NCBI GenBank assembly: GCA_964558645.1
Contig: CAZLEV010000005.1
Span: 175,321-239,320 of the forward strand
Source of the DNA: an uncultured archaeon
GTDB taxonomy: Archaea; Asgardarchaeota; Thorarchaeia; Thorarchaeales; Thorarchaeaceae
Length of the DNA stretch: 64,000 nucleotides
Direction of reading: 5' to 3'
How positions within the stretch are numbered: the stretch's first letter is position 1; every line of letters begins with the position of its first letter. Position numbers and translations under genes: made by a program. A model generated the notes under the pieces. It worked only from the letters and a program-made list of their open reading frames with translations, had not been told where the DNA came from and ran no database searches. Positions 5,936 to 15,132 of the stretch are shown in pieces.

Positions 5936-8017
5936 GTGTCACATGTTTACAAGAGATTCGTCCAAGAGAAGATAGCAGGTCTAATCGGCAATACGGAGAA
6001 CATCAGAAACTGCACAGTCATTGCTCACATTGATCACGGTAAGACAACTCTCACTGATTCCTTGATTGCGGCATCGGGACTCCTATCAGATCGCGTGGCT
6101 GCCAGAGCCAGGCTTCTTGACTACGACATGATAGAACAAGAGAGAGGCATCACTATCAAGGCATCTGGCATCTCGCTTCTTCACAAGCGAGGGGAGAGGA
6201 AACATCTCATCCACCTTATTGACACCCCGGGCCACATAGACTTCTCCAGTCATGTCACCAGAGGGCTCCGGCTTACTGATGGAGCCATTGTTGTCGTGGA
6301 TGTTATCGAAGGTATCATGGTGCAGACTGAAACGGTGACGCGTCAGGCCATGCAGGAACTGGTCAGACCCCTGCTCTTCATCAACAAGATCGATAGACTG
6401 GTCAATGAGAAGAAACTTGATGCAAAGAAGATTGCATCTGAGATCAGCAAGGTGACACGCGAGTTCAATGGAATGCTCGGGAAGTATCTTGACGACGAGT
6501 GGCTGGAAGAATGGGAGGTATCATTCAACAAGAACTCTCTTGTAATCGGTTCAGCCCTCGACAAATGGGGAATTTCGCTCTCTACACTTCTCACTAAGAC
6601 AGATGGAAGCAAGAACGAGACCCGTCTTGCGGAGGCCTTTCTTCACGTACTCAGCGAAGTCGTTGATTGCTACAAGAACAACGACGAGGAGTCCCTCCAC
6701 GATAAGTACCCTGTAGCCCCGGTGCTTCTTGATTCTCTTGTTGAGGTCATTCCAAACCCACCATCAGCTCAAAGGTACCGGATGGAGAGAATCTGGGAGG
6801 GGGACGTCGGTTCAGAAGCCGCAAGACCTTTTGTCGAGTGTGACCCGAAGGGCCCAACCGTGATTCTCGTGGGCAATGTTGAACCCGACCGACACGCCGG
6901 GACTGTTGCATCTGTACGCATATTCTCGGGTCAGCTTGAGAGAGCTGCACCCCTTAGAAACCTCAGATCAGATACGGTGAGCAAATCACTCCAGATTGGA
7001 ATCTCAATGGTGAAGTCAAGAGTAGCCCTGCCATCGATTCCAGCTGGCAATCTTGCCTTTGTCACGGGAATGAGAAACATCGCAATTGGAGATACGTTGG
7101 TGACGAGCGATACGGACATGGACACCCCCATGAAGGGGCTTCAATATCCAACAGAGCCAGTCGTTACCTACACCGTTGAACCACAACTACTAAGAGAGCT
7201 TGCTGAGGTTCAGGAGGAAATCGCAGAATTCGCTGAGGCCGATCCCGCATTGGACTTCTATGTGAATCCCGAGACTGGAGAGATGTTGCTCTCTGGTGCT
7301 GGAGAACTTCACATCGAGATTACGGTGGAGAAGCTCGCAAGACAGGGAATACGAGTCAGGCTTGGAGAGCCAATAGTACTGCTGAAGGAACAGATGGCCA
7401 AGGACGGGGCGAGCAGCTCAGCAGGAACTGAGGAAGCAAGCAGCTTCACTGTCCGTGCAGTAATCACTCGCGAGGACGAGTCAGTGAGAGAGCTTGGTAC
7501 GGTGATTGCATCGCACCTGTCCTCCTCATGCTATTTGATTGACCAGACTGGGAAGGTCGGGCCATACGATGACGAGACTGAATGGATACGAGAGGCATTT
7601 AATGCTGTAAGGAGAAGTGGGCCAGTTGCAGGAGAGCGTATGCGGAAAGTCACGCTGTTGATAGAGAAGGCAAGCATCAAGATGGAGTCACCCGAAACCT
7701 CTTGGAGAGACATAACTCAACCGCTCGTCAAGGCCTCTCGTCAGAGCATCAAGTCTGGCGAACCCAGAGTACTCGAACCTTGGATTCGCCTTGAAATCAG
7801 TGCACCGGAAGACTACGTGGGCGCCACAACCTCTATTCTTGCGAGAAGAAAGGGAAACATCATTGCAATCGATTCCGAGAAGATGCTGTACCATATCGAG
7901 GCAGAGATTCCTGTTCGCGAGTCCTTTGGTCTGGCCAACGAACTCCGAACATCGACGTCAGGTTGGGTCACGTGGGGAGCAAGACCCGGCGAATACAGAG
8001 AGATGCGATCTCCATAG
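5936..8017 (+). CDS. Divergent elongation factor 2 paralog (translational GTPase)
   Basis: AHIDHGKTT, ERGITI, DTPGH, NKID, GAGELHIEI, and a domain V motif (ESFGLANELRTSTSG). The diphthamide loop is replaced by MESPETSWRD. Confidence 0.9.
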   Translation: MSHVYKRFVQEKIAGLIGNTENIRNCTVIAHIDHGKTTLTDSLIAASGLLSDRVAARARLLDYDMIEQERGITIKASGISLLHKRGERKHLIHLIDTPGHIDFSSHVTRGLRLTDGAIVVVDVIEGIMVQTETVTRQAMQELVRPLLFINKIDRLVNEKKLDAKKIASEISKVTREFNGMLGKYLDDEWLEEWEVSFNKNSLVIGSALDKWGISLSTLLTKTDGSKNETRLAEAFLHVLSEVVDCYKNNDEESLHDKYPVAPVLLDSLVEVIPNPPSAQRYRMERIWEGDVGSEAARPFVECDPKGPTVILVGNVEPDRHAGTVASVRIFSGQLERAAPLRNLRSDTVSKSLQIGISMVKSRVALPSIPAGNLAFVTGMRNIAIGDTLVTSDTDMDTPMKGLQYPTEPVVTYTVEPQLLRELAEVQEEIAEFAEADPALDFYVNPETGEMLLSGAGELHIEITVEKLARQGIRVRLGEPIVLLKEQMAKDGASSSAGTEEASSFTVRAVITREDESVRELGTVIASHLSSSCYLIDQTGKVGPYDDETEWIREAFNAVRRSGPVAGERMRKVTLLIEKASIKMESPETSWRDITQPLVKASRQSIKSGEPRVLEPWIRLEISAPEDYVGATTSILARRKGNIIAIDSEKMLYHIEAEIPVRESFGLANELRTSTSGWVTWGARPGEYREMRSP

Positions 8018-8019
8018 TT

Positions 8020-10308
8020 CTAGCGTCGAATGTAGAACCGACGACTCATCTCTTCACCGAGAAAAGCAAGCACGCGTCGATCTACCATGGCAACATCATC
8101 CATCATCTTCAGAGCACGCGCCATATTGGAGAAGATGGCATTGAGATACGGTTGAGACCTCAGAGTCTCTGATTGATCAACCATCTGCAGATAGGCCTCT
8201 GTTATCTTGATCAGACCCAGCCAGTCATCTGATAGTATGAAACTGAAGTGCGTATCTGAGAAGCGCTCGGCCAACCTTGGCTGCTGGGTGCGGTCAATTT
8301 TCGCGCTGTACCGGTTCTCCAGAACTAGAGCGAACTGAAAGAGGACACTTGAGAGGGACAATGCAGTCGCCTTGATGAACTCCAAGGACTCGTCAAATGA
8401 AGAAACACTGGCCTCAACCTCCTGAAGCTTGACAGCTGAGTCATACAGACCAGAAGCAAGTTCTGAATAGTCTCTGTTCCGATAGAACAAATGAAGCGTC
8501 TTAGCCAAGCCCGTCTGGCCCCTCCAGTATTGAGCAAGAAGGGGGTCAGTGTTCTGCACGCTCTGTGTCACAGGGTCCGTGACCTCACCTGTCATCTCAA
8601 GCTTCACAGCATCGAGATTCAGCTTCGAAATAGCAAGAGCCTGCATCAGAGGGACAACATCCATGATTCCATTGTCCTGACTAGCAAGAGACCTACAACG
8701 ATTTCGAAGAGTCAGCCATGAATTGTTCATGAATGGTACGACAAGCGCTACGCCATCGATGAATACATCATCATTCGTTGCTCGAGCATCGGACAACATC
8801 CTATCGATGTCATCGAGAAGTCTCAGGAAACGATGCGGCATGGAGCCTCCGTGTCGAAGAGTCAACCAGACAGTGTTGTATGTCGCTATTGCAACTTCTG
8901 TGAATGCACGGGTGTCAGTTGGAAACAAAGGCGTGTATTGGACTAGTAGACTTCGAATAGGCGCGTAATCATCTCCAATGGGAGTCTCAAGCTTACGAAG
9001 CCTTGACAATTCTAGACCGATCTGGCTTCCGAGCAGCACCAGTTCCGATATCTTTCCGTCGCCGAGGAGTTTCTTTCTCATATCAACTGCACGTTCGAAG
9101 GCCTCAATGCCCGTGTCCCATAACTCATTGGACTCACACCCAAGACATAGCCAGCCTATCGAGTGCTCACAGACCGACAGCTCAACTTCTGCATCCTCGA
9201 TTTGCTCAAGGATAGAACGGGCGCGGGAGAGATACTCTAGAGAGAGGGTGATGTTTCGATGGTCGCTCTGAAGACCGTGTGCGAATCCAAGGGCTGCAAG
9301 GCATCTGTAAAGGTGCATGTTCTGCTCCTGGGTAAGACCTTCCATGTCCTCATAGATGCTCAGGCACTCCTCCAGTCGCTCAATGGCTTCAGGAACTCCT
9401 TCAAACCACCCGTTTGCTAGGATGTTCGACCCAATCAGGAGATAGGCGAAACCGAGGTCATCTTTCGAAGCAAGTTCAATATTCACCGCTTCTCGGAACA
9501 GAGAAGTCGCTGTATCAGCTAGTGCTCTGGCGGTCTTGTGATGAACTGCGTCATCACGGGTCTCGTTGATGGCCAACTGGAGGGTCACATCCGCCAATTT
9601 GATGCTGTCATGCTCCTTCTTAGCAACGTCGGCAAGATTGTGCAAGATGGTACGCGACTGCTGGTACATTCCCAGCTCCGTCAGAACGGCAGCTTCATCC
9701 AGAGATACATCGAAATGTGTCGCCTCCATGTCCATGTCTTGAGAGAAACCAATCAGGCGGTTCAGCAGGACATCAGCACAGTCAAACATACCTTCACGAA
9801 GAAGCATGTGAATGGCATAGTGAGACTCATGGATAGCCAGTCTGGTAGACGCTTCATGACCACGTGCGAAGAGGGCCTCAAGGGTCAGCAAAGCTTCATC
9901 GGTGAGAAAGGGCAATAGGGGGCGCAGGTTGAGACTCATGGCCATGTACATGGACTGGGTGAGGTCACCCAGAATATCCAGTAAGACTGGGATTGCATGC
10001 ACATCCGGGAGTAGCTCGCTCTCTTCTCGTCTATGTGCCGTTGTAAACCTAGTATCTAGTAGCTGAAGCATCTGAGGAAGGGTTCGGTCCTGCCTGAACG
10101 AAAGACGCACCGACAGTTCGGTGAGCTTTGCGCTGGCAATACCCGGCCTTCGAAGGAGGATCTCCTCAACTGCCCGGGCAATCTCGAACGCAAGATCGAC
10201 ATCGTCTTCTCTCCGTCTTGATATGTTCTGAATCGCTGACAACCCGTCATCAAGAGACATGGCTCCACAGAGGATGTCTCTCAGTGTGACGATTGCCATT
10301 GATTCCAA
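8020..10308 (-). CDS. Large alpha-helical (TPR-like) protein of unknown function
   Basis: 762-aa Leu/Ala/Glu-rich ORF with TPR-like segments (EAIERLEECLSIYE, GIEAFERAVDMRKKL); co-oriented downstream of the KaiC-like genes. Confidence 0.7.
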   Translation of the reverse strand: MESMAIVTLRDILCGAMSLDDGLSAIQNISRRREDDVDLAFEIARAVEEILLRRPGIASAKLTELSVRLSFRQDRTLPQMLQLLDTRFTTAHRREESELLPDVHAIPVLLDILGDLTQSMYMAMSLNLRPLLPFLTDEALLTLEALFARGHEASTRLAIHESHYAIHMLLREGMFDCADVLLNRLIGFSQDMDMEATHFDVSLDEAAVLTELGMYQQSRTILHNLADVAKKEHDSIKLADVTLQLAINETRDDAVHHKTARALADTATSLFREAVNIELASKDDLGFAYLLIGSNILANGWFEGVPEAIERLEECLSIYEDMEGLTQEQNMHLYRCLAALGFAHGLQSDHRNITLSLEYLSRARSILEQIEDAEVELSVCEHSIGWLCLGCESNELWDTGIEAFERAVDMRKKLLGDGKISELVLLGSQIGLELSRLRKLETPIGDDYAPIRSLLVQYTPLFPTDTRAFTEVAIATYNTVWLTLRHGGSMPHRFLRLLDDIDRMLSDARATNDDVFIDGVALVVPFMNNSWLTLRNRCRSLASQDNGIMDVVPLMQALAISKLNLDAVKLEMTGEVTDPVTQSVQNTDPLLAQYWRGQTGLAKTLHLFYRNRDYSELASGLYDSAVKLQEVEASVSSFDESLEFIKATALSLSSVLFQFALVLENRYSAKIDRTQQPRLAERFSDTHFSFILSDDWLGLIKITEAYLQMVDQSETLRSQPYLNAIFSNMARALKMMDDVAMVDRRVLAFLGEEMSRRFYIRR

Positions 10309-10365
10309 TATTCTTATCCCTCGACTAGGTCGAACTCGATGTGTTCCATGTTAAAAGCCTTCACG

Positions 10366-11073
10366 CTACTCAATCAAGAACTCATTCCACGAACGTGAGG
10401 TCTCTGTCCCCCGCATTCGCTCCATCCTCACGTAATGACTGGGTCCTGAATCGGAATCTTCAATTCTGAATCGTAGGACAGCATCAGCGATGTATGAAAA
10501 CGTCGCATAGGTCTTGTCATCGTGAACACCCTCCTCGAGAATGTACATGATACTGTGTGAGCCCTGTTTGAGTCGTCCGCTCAGACGTTGAACCGCACGG
10601 GGCATCTTGGCAGGATTGGAATGAAGGATAAGTGTCGAGAGGCTATCGATGACAACTCGGGCAACAACAAGGTTCTCAAGCACTTCCGAGAGAACTATCC
10701 CCAACTCACTGATATCATCCACCTTTGCAAGAGAGTAAGAACTCTTACTCTGAGGAGCGCCCATGCGTTCAGAGTAACCATCAATGAAGACGAATTGGCC
10801 GGATTCTTCGTAGTCCTCAATCGACCAACCATGACGACTCATGTCATTTCGAATGACCCTGGGAGAAACGTCGGTGGTAACAAATACTGCTGGAAATCCA
10901 AGACGAAGTCCCTCTGCAAGATAGCCCTCAGCATAGGTTGTCTTACCCGAACCTATCGGCCCGAGAAGCATGATTGATACTTGCGTCAGCTGGCCGAATT
11001 CCACCAGATCGCCAAGCATGGGAGTGACTTTGGCCGGTTCTGAACCAGATGTCTCCGAGACCTTATCGTTCAT
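10366..11073 (-). CDS. KaiC/RAD55-family RecA-like ATPase with degenerate catalytic glutamates
   Basis: Walker A GPIGSGKT, VVIDSLS, SYIADAVL, RMRGT. VTTDV stands where VTLEE is usual. Confidence 0.85.
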   Translation of the reverse strand: MNDKVSETSGSEPAKVTPMLGDLVEFGQLTQVSIMLLGPIGSGKTTYAEGYLAEGLRLGFPAVFVTTDVSPRVIRNDMSRHGWSIEDYEESGQFVFIDGYSERMGAPQSKSSYSLAKVDDISELGIVLSEVLENLVVARVVIDSLSTLILHSNPAKMPRAVQRLSGRLKQGSHSIMYILEEGVHDDKTYATFSYIADAVLRFRIEDSDSGPSHYVRMERMRGTETSRSWNEFLIE

Positions 11074-11091
11074 CTACAATACCTCTTCAGT

Positions 11092-11835
11092 CTAGCTGCC
11101 AGGACTGATCTCACCCGGCCATACTCTGATACCTTCATCAGTAATCCGCATAGAGTGAATGCGTGAGCTATGTTTCGAACCCCTCAATTTCAGTACTTCT
11201 ATCGATCGCGACCTTGATGTATCACTGATCTTCTCGTTGTAGAGCACTACTACGCCGGATGCCAGGAAGGCCTCTATGTCAAAGACACCAAGTCCCGTAT
11301 CCCGGGCGGGTATCTCGCTGGTCAGGAGTAGGGTGGTGCCCTTCGCGGTTATGCTGGCACATAGTTTGAAGAATTCCTCTCGCAGAATGTCCCGGCTCTT
11401 GAACTTGTATGCCAGAATCGAGAGGGTGTCGATCACTACTCTCTTCGCATTGATTCGATCGATGTGGCTGTGGATTATCGCCTCCAGCCCTGAAAGGTCA
11501 AAGCTGGGATACTCATACAGGTTCTTCGGTTGAGGCCGTGCAGGAGACAGGTCAACAATGGCCATCTTCTCCTGTTTCACCATCTTTTCCAGATCCATAC
11601 CGAATCTCATCATGTTCCGCTTGATTGCACTGGGGGCCTCCTCTAGAGTTACCAGAACGCCAGGTTCGTCGTAGACGGCGGCGCCCTTGTAGATGAACTG
11701 ATTGGCAAGAATGCTCTTGCCAGTGCCCGCCTTCCCTGCAACAAGTATCGTGTCACCCTTGGGAAATCCGCCCTCAATCAGGTCATCCAGACCAGGGATG
11801 CCTGTCTTAATCCGCTCAATTGTGTAGTCATTCAT
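11092..11835 (-). CDS. Single-domain KaiC-family ATPase
   Basis: IKTGIPGLDDLIEGG, GKAGTGKS, VTLEE, RVVIDT, EVLKLRGSKH. Confidence 0.92.
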   Translation of the reverse strand: MNDYTIERIKTGIPGLDDLIEGGFPKGDTILVAGKAGTGKSILANQFIYKGAAVYDEPGVLVTLEEAPSAIKRNMMRFGMDLEKMVKQEKMAIVDLSPARPQPKNLYEYPSFDLSGLEAIIHSHIDRINAKRVVIDTLSILAYKFKSRDILREEFFKLCASITAKGTTLLLTSEIPARDTGLGVFDIEAFLASGVVVLYNEKISDTSRSRSIEVLKLRGSKHSSRIHSMRITDEGIRVWPGEISPGS

Positions 11836-12164
11836 TAGTCAACACCTCTGCCATGTGAAAGACGAGACCCAAGTATCATCTTCAGGAGTGCCTCGGGTTC
11901 GGGTATGCCCGTGACAGCCACCCCTCCAATCATTATCGTAGGCAATGCAAAGACTCCGTATTCTTCTGCAACCTCGGGGTTCTCAGAGACATTGATTGTA
12001 TTGACTCTGAACATGTCAGACTCGAACTCACCGATGGTCTCCAACAGAACTTCTTCAGCACGGGGACAGAAGGCACAGGTGTCAGACTTGAAGAAGACTA
12101 TCTCTATCTGAGAGAAATCAGCGTCTTGTTCGACCGCTTCTTGACTCTCTCCATCTTCAACCAA
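11835..12164 (-). CDS. Thioredoxin-fold protein (CxxC), KaiB-like by position
   Basis: CAFCP and NVSENPEVAEEYGVFALPT. Its stop overlaps the start of the KaiC-like gene (TAATG). Confidence 0.85.
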   Translation of the reverse strand: MVEDGESQEAVEQDADFSQIEIVFFKSDTCAFCPRAEEVLLETIGEFESDMFRVNTINVSENPEVAEEYGVFALPTIMIGGVAVTGIPEPEALLKMILGSRLSHGRGVD

Positions 12165-12253
12165 TGAACCGTCTCCTGGACCGCACCGAGGCTAAGGCGC
12201 ATGAGGTAACAAATCACTTGAATGTTTCTCACACATCTCTCTGTTGTTGGAGG

Positions 12254-12631
12254 CTATTCCATGAGATGTCGAATCTTGGTGGCGGCCTTACCAACAGCCC
12301 GTGCATGGTATCTGATTCGCTTTGGCATGAGGGCTGCAAGAATGAACGGCTGACGTGTTCCTGTAACCTTCTTGAAGACTGCTTTTCCCTCAGAACAGCG
12401 AACAGTGATATCGCGGAGCTGTCCCAAGCTCAGTTCATCTCTCATCCGTTCAACAGTAGATGCAACATACCCCGACATAGCAGCGACCACCTCTCGATTT
12501 GTGGTAGGGCTTGCAGCAGAGGCCATGAGCAGGCCGTCTTCTCTAGCCAGTATGGACGCGCGAAATCCGCCCTCTCTGTTCATCTCTTCCAGGATATCTG
12601 CCAAGGCTCTGTAGTCAGGACGCTTATCCAT
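12254..12631 (-). CDS. Roadblock/LC7 domain protein
   Basis: 125 aa; GFRASILAREDGLLMAS...VVAAMS...LSLGQLRDITV matches the roadblock pattern. Confidence 0.88.
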   Translation of the reverse strand: MDKRPDYRALADILEEMNREGGFRASILAREDGLLMASAASPTTNREVVAAMSGYVASTVERMRDELSLGQLRDITVRCSEGKAVFKKVTGTRQPFILAALMPKRIRYHARAVGKAATKIRHLME

Positions 12632-12790
12632 GTCTCACACCCGGTCCTAGGACCGCATGCTCAGAATTGCGCATTGCTTATTAAACTATGACCTGCTCTA
12701 CTCTAAACCAGTAAGTATTCTCTCTGTTGAAGGATGTGTTCCGTCACAGTAGGATTTTAAGGCCGATTACTTATCAGAGATTATAGGGAA

Positions 12791-13333
12791 GTGAATAGTG
12801 TGCCAGCCGAATACCGATTCAAGGTCGTCATGCTGGGAGATGGAGCAGTAGGCAAGACTGCGCTAACCACACGGTTCACTCAAGATCATTTTAGTGCTGA
12901 TTACAAGCGTACGATTGGAAGCGATTTTGCTGTCAAGCGGTTGGTTCTACCTGAACAAGACAGTAATGTCACCCTTCAAGTCTGGGATCTTGCAGGTCAG
13001 CCCAGATTCGAAATCGTTCGACAGTCATTCTATCGCGGGGCAAGAGGTGCACTCCTTGTCTACGATGTCACCCGAAGGAGGACATTCCTCAATCTCGACC
13101 GCTGGCGAAAGGAAGCGTATGATAACACAGGCCGCGAGATTCCAGTAATTGTCGTCGCAAACAAAGTGGACCTTGAAGACAGCAGAGTAGTGCAGCCCGA
13201 GATGGGCGAGCAGTATTCCGAGAGCATCGGCTCCATATACGTTGAGTCAAGCGCATTGACCGGGGAGAACGTTGAGAAGGCATTTGAGCAGCTATGCAAG
13301 GTCATGATTGACTCGAGTAGAAGCAGGTCCTGA
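12791..13333 (+). CDS. Rab-like small GTPase (Ras superfamily)
   Basis: GDGAVGKT, TIGSDF, WDLAGQ, FYRGA, NKVD, ESSA; no C-terminal prenylation motif. Confidence 0.95.
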   Translation: MNSVPAEYRFKVVMLGDGAVGKTALTTRFTQDHFSADYKRTIGSDFAVKRLVLPEQDSNVTLQVWDLAGQPRFEIVRQSFYRGARGALLVYDVTRRRTFLNLDRWRKEAYDNTGREIPVIVVANKVDLEDSRVVQPEMGEQYSESIGSIYVESSALTGENVEKAFEQLCKVMIDSSRSRS

Positions 13334-13342
13334 AACGTACGA

Positions 13343-14482
13343 TTATTTCATGCGCCTCGGTTTCCCCTTCAGCAGACCAAGACCTTTCTTGCACTGCCAT
13401 AAGACGTAGAAGACTCGCTTGTCACGCAGGACCTCTGGATCATATTGACTACGAAGATCTTCAAATTTCTGGATAAGCTCATTGCGTCTCGAGCCGCTTG
13501 TATCTGACTTGACCTCATCCAAGAGCTGCTCAAAAGGTTCCATCACACGATCCAGCTCGGCGATGTCCCAGCGGATGATGGCTCCACTACCATCAGAGGT
13601 CAAGAATCCTCGCTCATTGTGAATCCATTCGATTCCGTCGATCTCGCTATCTGTTGTGGCTTCACCCTCTACTCTGCCGGTCTCGAGGTTCCACACGAAG
13701 AGGTTCTTGTTGGCAGACCCAGACACCAAGTACTTGTTATCCGTACTGAACACAACGGAACGTACCTCCCCTGAGTGCCCCCGTAAGACACATTTCTTCG
13801 TTAGCTCTTCTCCTGAGGAGTTCCAGACGATGATATCGTGATCGGAGGACCCGGAAGCCACGAGAGAACCATCAACGGAGAAGCGGACAACCTGCACAGC
13901 GGTTCGATGCTCTTCAATCCATTGCTTCTTCTCGCCGGTATTACCATCCCACAAGCCGATTGATGCATCAACGCTTGCCGACACTATTTTCTCGTTCACC
14001 GGAGACCATTCGCAGCTCACTACGTAGAGGGAATGACCCTTCATCCTGTGTATCTTCTCTCGATCATCAACATCCCAGATGATCATGGTTGTATCGCCGC
14101 TCCCAGAGAGCAGCTTGCTGCCATCGGGTGAGAAAGAAAGTGACAGGACTGGGTAAGTGTGTCCTTCTAGCCTGGCCAAGCATTCACCGGTTCGTATATC
14201 CCAAAGCTTCACCACACGATCGACGCCACCTGATGCGATGATGTCGCCACGCGGGCTGAAGGCGATGGATGTGCAGAGAAACTCATCCTGAAGGCGCTGA
14301 ATCTCTTCACCGTTAGAGACATCGTATAGCCGAATAGCACGGTCTTGAGTAGCTGAGGCAATCATGCGCCCAACCTTATTCATTGCGAATCTACGAGTGA
14401 TATCGCCAGCTACCTCTGCAGGAGGTTTCAATACCTTAGGTCGCAGGAAAAGGGTAATCTCTGGTCCTTCCATCTGGTTCAC
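13343..14482 (-). CDS. WD40-repeat beta-propeller protein with a C-terminal helical tail
   Basis: About 7 GH...WD repeats, e.g. LEGHTYPVLSLSFSPDG...IIWD. Confidence 0.95.
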   Translation of the reverse strand: MNQMEGPEITLFLRPKVLKPPAEVAGDITRRFAMNKVGRMIASATQDRAIRLYDVSNGEEIQRLQDEFLCTSIAFSPRGDIIASGGVDRVVKLWDIRTGECLARLEGHTYPVLSLSFSPDGSKLLSGSGDTTMIIWDVDDREKIHRMKGHSLYVVSCEWSPVNEKIVSASVDASIGLWDGNTGEKKQWIEEHRTAVQVVRFSVDGSLVASGSSDHDIIVWNSSGEELTKKCVLRGHSGEVRSVVFSTDNKYLVSGSANKNLFVWNLETGRVEGEATTDSEIDGIEWIHNERGFLTSDGSGAIIRWDIAELDRVMEPFEQLLDEVKSDTSGSRRNELIQKFEDLRSQYDPEVLRDKRVFYVLWQCKKGLGLLKGKPRRMK

Positions 14483-14565: not shown

Positions 14566-15132
14566 CTACATCATGCCACCGTCTTCGAGAATCTTGATTG
14601 CCAGCTCCAAGAAAGAGGCCTCAACATTCTCTCCGGTCTTGGCAGAGGTCTCGATGAACGAAGATTGAACTCCCTGATTCCCAATGCTCTCGGCGAATGC
14701 CTGACCCTCCTCAGTTGTCACGATTGTCTGCTTCATGACAGGGTTGTCCTGGAACTGCTCCCTCAGGTCAATCTTGTTGCCTATGACCACGACAGGGATC
14801 TTCTTTCCTGCATTCTTCCAGCATTCATCAAGCCAGTTGGGCAGGTTCTCAAACGAGGCTCGTTCCACAGTAGAGTAGACAGCAAGTGCGCCTTGAGCCC
14901 CTCGGTAGAACGTCGAACGGACGCTCTTGAAGTGCTCCTGGCCTGCAAGGTCCCAAATCTGGATACTCACATCGTGACCACCCTCAAGGGACATCTTTTT
15001 CACGGCAAAGTCAGCACCAATAGTGATCATATAGCTCGCCCTGAAACCCTCGCCCATGTACGTTCTTCGTAGCGAGGTCTTCCCTACCGAGCCATCTCCC
15101 ATGAGAACGATCTTGAACAACGCTGTAACCAT
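14566..15132 (-). CDS. Rab-like small GTPase (Ras superfamily)
   Basis: GDGSVGKT, TIGADF, WDLAGQ, FYRGA, NKID, ETSAK; no CAAX/CC tail. Confidence 0.95.
   Translation of the reverse strand: MVTALFKIVLMGDGSVGKTSLRRTYMGEGFRASYMITIGADFAVKKMSLEGGHDVSIQIWDLAGQEHFKSVRSTFYRGAQGALAVYSTVERASFENLPNWLDECWKNAGKKIPVVVIGNKIDLREQFQDNPVMKQTIVTTEEGQAFAESIGNQGVQSSFIETSAKTGENVEASFLELAIKILEDGGMM

Follow-up and report, generated by a model that had tools for sequence, protein, structure and literature searches.

The window analyzed in this work, i.e., the whole 64,000-nucleotide (nt) stretch of contig CAZLEV010000005.1 (positions 175,321 to 239,320 of the forward strand) from the assembly GCA_964558645.1 of an uncultured Thorarchaeaceae archaeon, carries a set of five co-oriented genes encoding a Roadblock/LC7 protein, a thioredoxin-fold protein (Trx), two KaiC-family proteins (KaiC1 and KaiC2), and a large protein resembling a tetratricopeptide repeat (TPR) solenoid. 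A gene of a Rab-like small GTPase (GTPaseA) diverges from this set (Table 1). Asgard archaea encode dozens of eukaryote-like small GTPases together with Roadblock or longin proteins and, to our knowledge, no Asgard GTPase has so far been matched to a regulator.

Table 1. Features of the Roadblock-KaiC locus and its flank (positions in the window; aa, amino acids; AF2, AlphaFold2).
Feature	Position	Strand	Size	Description	Basis
Roadblock/LC7 gene	12254-12631	minus	125 aa	first operon gene	PF03259 30.8 bits
Trx gene	11835-12164	minus	109 aa	thioredoxin, TTG start, CAFC motif	Thioredoxin_3 33.1 bits
KaiC1 gene	11092-11835	minus	247 aa	predicted single-domain CI-type ATPase	PF06745 232.9 bits
KaiC2 gene	10366-11073	minus	235 aa	predicted inactivated paralog	PF06745 106.8 bits, DUF7504 37.5 bits
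TPR-like gene	8020-10308	minus	762 aa	all-alpha solenoid, last operon gene	AF2 fold
Divergent intergenic region	12632-12790		159 bp	between the Roadblock operon and GTPaseA	sequence reading
GTPaseA gene	12791-13333	plus	180 aa	Rab-like small GTPase	Ras family PF00071 175.7 bits
WD40 gene	13343-14482	minus		WD40 propeller	Pfam WD40
Second Rab-like GTPase gene	14566-15132	minus		Rab-like small GTPase	Pfam Ras

The five genes, the translational coupling of the thioredoxin to KaiC1, and the 18-bp distance between the two KaiC genes had already been reported in a first-pass annotation of this stretch, and all of them were found again. The stop codon of Trx and the start codon of KaiC1 overlap in TAATG, the 18-nt spacer between KaiC1 and KaiC2 contains GAGG ahead of KaiC2, and a GGAG motif lies 8 nt 5' of the TTG start of Trx; the KaiC2-TPR and Roadblock-Trx gaps are 57 and 89 nt long, respectively. 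An AT-rich, TATA-like element (TTTAATAA), situated approximately 48 nt 5' of the Roadblock ATG, may be the promoter of the operon. Within 78 loci the distance between Trx and KaiC1 ranges from -20 to +9 nt (a 4-nt overlap in 49 of them), and the spacing at the other junctions of the operon is less tight (medians 25, 61, and 91 nt).

Almost all named contigs carrying a KaiC2 ortholog belong to metagenome-assembled genomes of Candidatus Thorarchaeota. Of the 24 genomes sampled from the same family, 22 have a KaiC2 ortholog with 69-96% identity, and one outlying ortholog (52% identity) was identified in a genome of the sister family (G025); apart from this outlier, orthologs were found in Thorarchaeota only. 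The order of the divergent GTPase gene and of the Roadblock, Trx, KaiC1, KaiC2, and TPR genes is constant in about 70 Thorarchaeota species, wherever the contig extends far enough. In G025 the GTPase, Roadblock, Trx, KaiC1, and KaiC2 genes are all co-oriented, with the GTPase gene directly upstream of Roadblock and without a TPR gene. The five-gene locus is confirmed as a real, conserved operon.

With its score far over the PF06745 cut-off of 26.6 bits, KaiC1 belongs to the KaiC/RecA superfamily, and its Walker A (GKAGTGKS), VTLEE, Walker B (VVIDTLS), and arginine finger (LRGSKHS) motifs are invariant in 17 aligned orthologs. In comparison with KaiC 8zn5, it matches the CI domain with 181 bits and the CII domain with 72 bits. 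The EAFLAS segment, pointed out in the first-pass annotation, aligns in HMMER with EEFVAD/EEFVSD of CI, and the positions of the CII phosphosites are occupied by Ala-Phe, with no Ser or Thr there. KaiC1 is a single-domain KaiC of the CI type in which no catalytic motif is missing. In the exhaustive search, in which all Thorarchaeial orthologs were merged into one representative, the next match was a two-domain KaiC (P0122), to whose halves KaiC1 shows 41% and 38% identity. The models of bona fide circadian KaiC (TIGR02655 and NF006799) gave 209.6 and 168.6 bits, i.e., less than the respective cut-offs of 408 and 546 bits; two tandem domains in one protein of approximately 500 aa are not present, the two KaiC domains being encoded by separate genes, and neither KaiC1 nor KaiC2 has a CII-type domain with S431/T432 plus E318/E319. 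A segment of the length of the B-loop, the CI site for KaiB docking, is present in KaiC1, and it would permit KaiB-style docking, although it does not argue for it.

KaiC2 retains both Walker motifs (GSGKT in Walker A, with its Lys-Thr, and the Asp of Walker B) as well as the arginine finger, and the catalytic Glu pair is replaced by Asp-Val in the VTTDV sequence noted in the first-pass annotation (TTDVSPR is invariant in 17 orthologs). As a KaiC-family domain that lost its catalytic residues, KaiC2 is assigned by sequence to the inactivated single-domain KaiCs of the iKaiC type, the name introduced for inactivated KaiC in archaeal signal transduction hubs (Makarova et al. 2017, mBio 8:e01959-17, through PMC5847659). 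It is probably still able to bind nucleotide and to donate an arginine finger, despite the loss of the catalytic glutamates. The presence of a catalytically intact KaiC together with a paralog devoid of these glutamates fits the idea of an archaeal KaiC signaling hub mentioned in the first-pass annotation; such hubs likewise comprise single-domain KaiC ATPases and inactivated paralogs, encoded in operons together with presumed input and output domains (PMC5847659). The closest solved relatives of KaiC2 are the single-domain PH0284 (83 bits) and PH0186 (69 bits) of Pyrococcus horikoshii, hexameric proteins (2DR3, 2ZTS) which share the single RecA-like domain with KaiC2, but PH0284 keeps the catalytic EE pair where KaiC2 has TD-V.

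The first-pass annotation had compared the KaiC1-KaiC2 pair to separated CI and CII rings. When KaiC2 was aligned with the solved KaiC domains, it gave 42 bits for CI vs. 16 bits for CII, and the N-terminal half of P0122 was matched with 68.6 bits vs. 41.6 bits for the other half (25% and 24% identity). Moreover, in the maximum-likelihood tree the CII-type halves create a clade of their own, and KaiC2 is placed elsewhere, with other inactive KaiCs, on long branches. KaiC2 as a split-off CII domain was rejected because of these higher CI scores and its position outside the CII clade, and the idea of a KaiC divided into CI and CII is therefore unsupported. As regards the Ser proposed to occupy a phosphosite in KaiC2, the alignment of FSYIAD with ISTITD of CII was reproduced in HMMER, albeit with only 16 bits; in it, Ser193/Tyr194 face S431/T432, and Thr188, which is invariant, faces T426. 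This Ser is replaced by Ala in one of the 17 Thor-order orthologs and is unconserved in KaiC2-like proteins of other lineages.

Analysis of the Trx protein revealed that it exceeds the cut-offs of both PF13192 (Thioredoxin_3; 33.1 vs. 24.8 bits) and PF00085 (27.0 vs. 23.5 bits), and that its score for Pfam KaiB (PF07689), obtained over 28 residues only, is below the cut-off (20.1 vs. 27 bits). In the search of the PDB with a profile of 17 orthologs, the MJ0307 thioredoxin (1FO5) was matched with an E-value of 2.9e-17, and KaiB (1wwj) appeared at rank 60 with 1.4e-3. The single-chain AF2 model (pLDDT 83) has the canonical b-a-b-a-b-b-a thioredoxin topology, and there was no KaiB among its top 50 Foldseek matches, nearly all of which were thioredoxins or Trx-tagged fusion constructs. 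Membership of the Thorarchaeial Trx in KaiB was rejected on the basis of these three tests, and so the earlier view of this protein as KaiB-like in sequence was not borne out, also by the profile comparison suggested for it at that time. On profile evidence it is nearest to the MJ0307 family (1FO5, 1NHO; TIGR00411), with which it shares the CxxC motif, the cis-Pro, and the fold, yet it is no equivalog: it remains under the TIGR00411 equivalog cut-off (57.1 vs. 92.75 bits) and differs by an acidic, disordered N-terminal tail and by being locked to a KaiC gene. Residues C30 and C33 (CxFC) and the cis-Pro P75 are invariant in the 17 aligned Thor-order orthologs and in further database relatives. 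The operon Trx is regarded as a dedicated paralog, because at least eight thioredoxin genes located elsewhere in the genome fit the canonical family much better (55-92 bits vs. 26 bits). In the ortholog alignments of KaiC1 and KaiC2 no conserved Cys was found; KaiC2 is usually Cys-free and its copy in the window has none. A redox input could therefore operate only via the state of Trx itself or via other targets.

These results bear on the redox-gated timer considered in the first-pass annotation, a model which, spelled out in full, would have KaiC1 and KaiC2 function as separate CI and CII rings, Trx as KaiB, and the Ser of KaiC2 as the store of time. It may be backed by the strongly CI-like character of KaiC1, by the aligned Ser193/Tyr194 and Thr188 of KaiC2, and by the coupling of a thioredoxin-fold gene with a CI-like gene; in addition, the counterpart of Trx in Freyarchaeia (see below) slightly exceeds the cut-off of Pfam KaiB (27.9 vs. 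27 bits; Thioredoxin_3 21.8 bits), the Jordarchaeales counterpart showing the reverse. Nonetheless, we judge it very improbable: KaiC2 is closer to CI than to CII, its Ser is not kept, it has lost the glutamates that autokinase chemistry needs, KaiC1 has no Ser or Thr to be phosphorylated at this site, the Thorarchaeial Trx is of the MJ0307 type, and there is no KaiA, SasA, or RpaA-type output. The likeness to the cyanobacterial and proteobacterial KaiB-KaiC systems consists in a small thioredoxin-fold gene that directly precedes a CI-type KaiC domain and is co-translated with it, in CI being the domain that KaiC1 matches best, and in the B-loop-length segment. The differences are that KaiC1 has one domain, with no CII, no phosphosites, and no A-loop, and that the Trx has an intact CxxC and scores as a thioredoxin, not as KaiB. 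KaiB was found only with full-length KaiC and never with KaiCs of approximately 250 aa (Schmelling et al. 2017, PMC5520375), and a thioredoxin-fold partner of a single-domain KaiC is a departure from this pattern. For neither a clock nor a KaiC split in two is there any evidence at this locus.

Among PDB proteins, GTPaseA is most similar to Thor-Rab (7EZB, 271.7 bits), the best eukaryotic Rab reaching 146.9 bits. The gene of the crystallized protein (7EZB/7EZD/7EZE) is localized on contig LRSL01000056.1 (locus L070), where it stands divergently beside the Roadblock, Trx, KaiC1, KaiC2, and TPR genes, as in the window. By both score and gene arrangement, GTPaseA is identified as the ortholog of this crystallized, GTP-hydrolyzing Thor-Rab. 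Thor-Rab hydrolyzes GTP slowly and probably requires a GTPase-activating protein (GAP) or guanine nucleotide exchange factor (GEF), and the layout of the genomes makes it difficult to pair Asgard GTPases with regulators (Tran et al. 2024, PMC10933270). That paper is silent on KaiC, ATPase, and thioredoxin, as well as on the Roadblock gene neighboring Thor-Rab, and the Roadblock protein crystallized in it is a different paralog, which matches the operon Roadblock with about 25 bits only.

The operon Roadblock exceeds the PF03259 cut-off of 23 bits, and amongst the 12 Roadblock matches in this genome it is a divergent paralog, with weak PDB matches to Asgard Roadblock structures and to LAMTOR2. 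The location of a Roadblock gene next to a small Ras-superfamily GTPase gene, along with the weak LAMTOR2 match, resembles the MglA/MglB and Rag/Ragulator systems, but GTPaseA is Rab-like and not MglA-like, and a KaiC/iKaiC pair with a thioredoxin is inserted. The adjacency of the two genes, from which a putative role of Roadblock as a regulator of the MglB/Ragulator type is inferred, is divergent in the window, co-oriented in G025, and, in Jordarchaeales and Freyarchaeia, found inside the operon beside a fusion GTPase. A second Roadblock gene (35 bits) of the same genome (G000:C1:147050-148189) is followed, approximately 500 nt downstream, by a 336-aa open reading frame (ORF) with a weak KaiC-family match (24.8 bits), and this may be another Roadblock-KaiC pairing.

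For the TPR-like protein, the earlier assignment is suggested by the fold and not by Pfam: the AF2 model (pLDDT 89.4) is an all-alpha solenoid of 34 helices, and the Pfam score stayed sub-threshold (TPR_12, 27.9 vs. 30.1 bits). Foldseek indicated generic TPR scaffolds only (Ctr9, Ski3, LGN, and IFT-A/BBSome subunits), with low TM-scores, and the Atlas matches were exclusively TPR clusters. The gene is restricted to one Thorarchaeial family and missing from the sister family (G025), and its proposed role as an output of the system is not supported. We read the protein, on the modeled fold, as a probable lineage-specific scaffold.

A comparison of gene neighborhoods across Asgard genomes, recommended in the first-pass annotation as a check, extended the set well beyond Thorarchaeota: the same components, differently ordered, recur in no fewer than six further Asgard families. 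When 14 further Asgard genomes were searched with the Trx profile and the results were crossed with the KaiC matches, three of these genomes proved to have Trx-like ORFs directly upstream of KaiC genes. In Jordarchaeales (G040, G030) and Freyarchaeia (G060), a thioredoxin-fold gene is followed by a KaiC1-like gene, a fusion of iKaiC with an Arf/Ras GTPase, a Roadblock gene, and a KaiC2-like/DUF7504 gene; the inactive KaiC domain of this fusion has no Walker A. Two genomes of another family (f13; G036 and G046) have a Trx gene (CGFC), a KaiC1-like gene, and a RagA-like GTPase gene, and G048 has two thioredoxin-fold genes followed by KaiC1-like and KaiC2-like genes. The combination of KaiC1-like, KaiC2-like, and GTPase genes with no Trx was identified in G063, G035, and G060, and at a second locus of the Thorarchaeial genome G008. 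In every lineage the KaiC2-like partner lacks the Glu pair (TTDV, TIDE, TTNN, or TTSK). The iKaiC::GTPase fusion constitutes a family of proteins of approximately 380-400 aa distributed in many archaeal phyla, and it was not found in the source genome of the window. The small GTPase, overlooked in the first-pass annotation, is a recurrent partner across the Asgard lineages.

For the phylogenetic analysis, 20 KaiC1-like loci from 10 other families were chosen by similarity alone, blind to context. A Trx and/or GTPase neighbor was present at six of them, and the remaining 14 had other contexts. In the tree, all 16 linked KaiC1-likes are gathered in one clade (support 98/93), together with the CI-type N-domains of two-domain KaiCs. 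All six blind-picked linked loci are inside this clade and none of the 14 unlinked ones is; related genomes are not independent samples in this comparison, but the split is clean nonetheless. As judged from the tree, the link with Trx or GTPase is a property of one KaiC subfamily. Many of the unlinked KaiC1-like genes (L167, L169-L172, L176, L181, L184, and L186), from many Asgard families, have in turn an ORF of about 165-175 aa immediately upstream and a gene of about 670 aa nearby.

The thioredoxin-fold partners themselves are of more than one kind. Those of Jordarchaeales and Freyarchaeia have TPKY in place of CxxC and are Cys-less, and in the tree of Trx domains they create, along with one of the two G048 copies, a 100/100 clade; the CxxC partners are placed in two further groups, one Thorarchaeial and the other comprising f13 and the second G048 copy. 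The two G048 genes are arranged in tandem (L180:5373-6027), one of them Cys-less and grouping with Jordarchaeales/Freyarchaeia and the other, with CAFC, grouping with f13. The tree, based on domains of approximately 100 aa, needs three label changes, and the clustering of the KaiC-linked partners in it is non-random; one origin of all these partners is neither excluded nor shown by such data.

Our best reading of the locus is that it may represent the Thorarchaeial form of an Asgard-wide signaling module built on a KaiC-family ATPase. In particular, with confidence only somewhat above even, we regard it as an ATPase module of KaiC and iKaiC that is connected to a switch formed by a Rab-like GTPase and Roadblock and that includes a thioredoxin-fold regulatory subunit on the active ATPase and a lineage-specific TPR scaffold. 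KaiC1 would form an ATP-hydrolyzing ring, and KaiC2, itself non-catalytic, would be its partner or adaptor, either a member of this ring or docked on it, which would link the ATPase to the GTPase; in the Jordarchaeales and Freyarchaeia fusion proteins this link would be a covalent one. A dimer of Roadblock could serve as a GAP or GEF platform of the MglB/Ragulator type for the Rab-like GTPase. The thioredoxin-fold protein would be a regulatory subunit of KaiC1, with the CxxC invariant in Thorarchaeota letting the thiol redox state tune binding or ATPase activity, and the TPR solenoid would act as a scaffold for downstream partners. The net effect would be the coupling of the nucleotide state of the Rab-like GTPase to the ATPase cycle, and possibly to the redox state, which makes the module a presumed switch and not a clock. 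In the literature searched, with Makarova et al. 2017 outside its coverage, we found neither a set composed of a thioredoxin-fold protein, a CI-type KaiC, an iKaiC, Roadblock, and a Rab/Arf/Rag-like GTPase, nor any publication joining KaiC with Asgard GTPases, Roadblock, or thioredoxin.

Several observations weigh against this reading. Collinearity within the Thorarchaeial family extends over the entire 13-kb block between Lrp and PolB, and family-level synteny is therefore weak evidence by itself; the arrangement in G025 is more telling. Trx seems to be optional, since it is missing at about half of the KaiC loci with a linked GTPase that were sampled, and the GTPase partner is not orthologous across the lineages, being Rab-like in Thorarchaeota, Arf-like in the fusions, and Rag-like in G036. 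As KaiC1 and KaiC2 have no conserved Cys, Trx would be no disulfide reductase of the KaiC pair, and the Cys-less partner is not simply a dead Thorarchaeial Trx, because both partner types co-occur in G048. Finally, the B-loop-length segment is present in all single-domain KaiCs examined, including the unlinked ones, and absent from CII-type domains only, and for this reason it was rejected as a specific sign of KaiB-style docking.

The collinear block, the high numbers of GTPase, Roadblock, and KaiC paralogs in Asgard genomes, with which chance adjacency is not negligible, and the unrelated context of 14 of the 20 sampled KaiC1-like loci would suit an explanation by frozen synteny, with the GTPase and Roadblock genes as incidental neighbors of a KaiC pair engaged in an unrelated RadA-like, archaellum/pilus, or gas-vesicle-type role. 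Against it stand the iKaiC::GTPase fusion within the same operon type, the presence of the components, variously ordered, in six or more other families, the single clade of linked KaiC1-likes from which the unlinked ones are excluded, and the co-orientation of the GTPase gene within the operon of the sister family. We consider such frozen synteny extremely improbable.

The function of the thioredoxin-fold protein in the KaiC-GTPase module can be imagined in several ways. It could act as an ordinary disulfide reductase, not on the KaiC pair but on Roadblock, the GTPase, or an unrelated client, its co-translation with KaiC1 setting only the expression level. Its CxxC, cis-Pro, and canonical fold are intact, and one conserved Cys each was identified in Roadblock (C79, 16 of 17 sequences) and in GTPaseA (C169, 15 of 16), and these are candidate thioredoxin targets or mixed-disulfide sites. 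Furthermore, in G032 a CxxC Trx-like gene is placed between small-GTPase genes (L133:5924-7717), with no close relative of KaiC1 or KaiC2 found in that genome, which suggests a Trx-GTPase link without KaiC. Such a role is nevertheless clearly improbable, given that the stop/start overlap of Trx and KaiC1 is kept in nearly all loci, that thioredoxin-fold genes directly precede KaiC1-like genes in five other lineages, and that at least eight canonical thioredoxins are already encoded in the genome.

A purely structural adaptor of the KaiB style, seated on the KaiC1 ring, with cysteines that are a leftover or only stabilize the fold and with no redox input, would account for the partners without CxxC, encoded at the equivalent place ahead of KaiC1-like genes in Jordarchaeales and Freyarchaeia and, for one of two copies, in G048, for the Freyarchaeial partner passing the Pfam KaiB threshold, for the lack of a conserved Cys to be reduced in KaiC1 and KaiC2, and for the CI-type B-loop-length segment kept in KaiC1. 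The invariance of CxxC and cis-Pro in 17 of 17 Thor-order orthologs and in database relatives speaks, however, for redox chemistry being under selection; Cys-less partners and those with CxxC belong to separate groups, co-occur in G048, and may do different jobs, and KaiCs not linked to Trx have the B-loop segment as well. On balance, a purely structural role appears doubtful. Similarly unlikely, in our opinion, is the more far-reaching version in which the thioredoxin-fold protein is an analog of KaiB that docks on the KaiC1 ring according to the nucleotide state and, in Thorarchaeota, to its own redox state, setting the GTP/GDP state of the Rab-like protein through KaiC2 and the Roadblock dimer. 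If true, this would mean an ATPase-paced, redox-gated control of a eukaryote-like GTPase in the archaeal relatives of eukaryotes, and a KaiB-KaiC partnership older and broader than circadian clocks.

The module described here gives a conserved neighborhood to the Asgard Rab-like GTPase that has already been purified, crystallized, and assayed, and it indicates candidate regulators of Thor-Rab, i.e., a specific Roadblock paralog, an active/inactive KaiC pair, and a dedicated thioredoxin. It would link the proposed archaeal KaiC signaling hub with the GTPase switches whose later expansion took place in eukaryotes, the iKaiC::GTPase fusion of many archaeal phyla being a Rosetta stone for the KaiC-GTPase connection. 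The thioredoxin-fold partner locked to a single-domain CI-type KaiC offers a test of whether a KaiB-KaiC-like pairing predates clocks, and all parts of the module are small soluble proteins amenable to in vitro work.

As for the genes flanking the locus, the TPR-like gene is convergent with a gene of an EF-2-like GTPase (693 aa; 5936-8017), the ends of the two being separated by 2 nt. On the other side, the WD40 protein (of the seven-blade type) and the second Rab-like GTPase, which matches Thor-Rab (7EZB) with 139 bits, are encoded in the same orientation as the operon, and their genes are collinear with it across the Thorarchaeial family. Neither gene is present next to the operon of G025, and both are uncertain members of the module. 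An anti-phage defense role of the locus was also considered and dropped, as PADLOC gave only P-loop-level mad8 matches (20.5 and 14.9 bits).

Additional genes were noticed at the related loci of other Asgard genomes. The Trx, KaiC1-like, and RagA-like GTPase genes of G036 come after three small ORFs of 139, 100, and 152 aa (L129:7535-8860), and the third of these ORFs has no Pfam match. In G063, a KaiC2-like/DUF7504 protein fused to a receiver domain (REC, 89.5 bits) is encoded directly after the GTPase and KaiC1-like genes (L179:5144-6454), and a fusion of the KaiC-REC type has been reported from Methanosarcinaceae (PMC5847659). Lastly, GvpD-like P-loop proteins of approximately 480 aa are encoded beside KaiC1-like and GTPase genes in three genomes (L135:3094-4560, L136:3995-5428, and L182:2900-4354); their GvpD_P-loop scores are 53-54 bits where scanned, and they may be a further recurrent component of the module.

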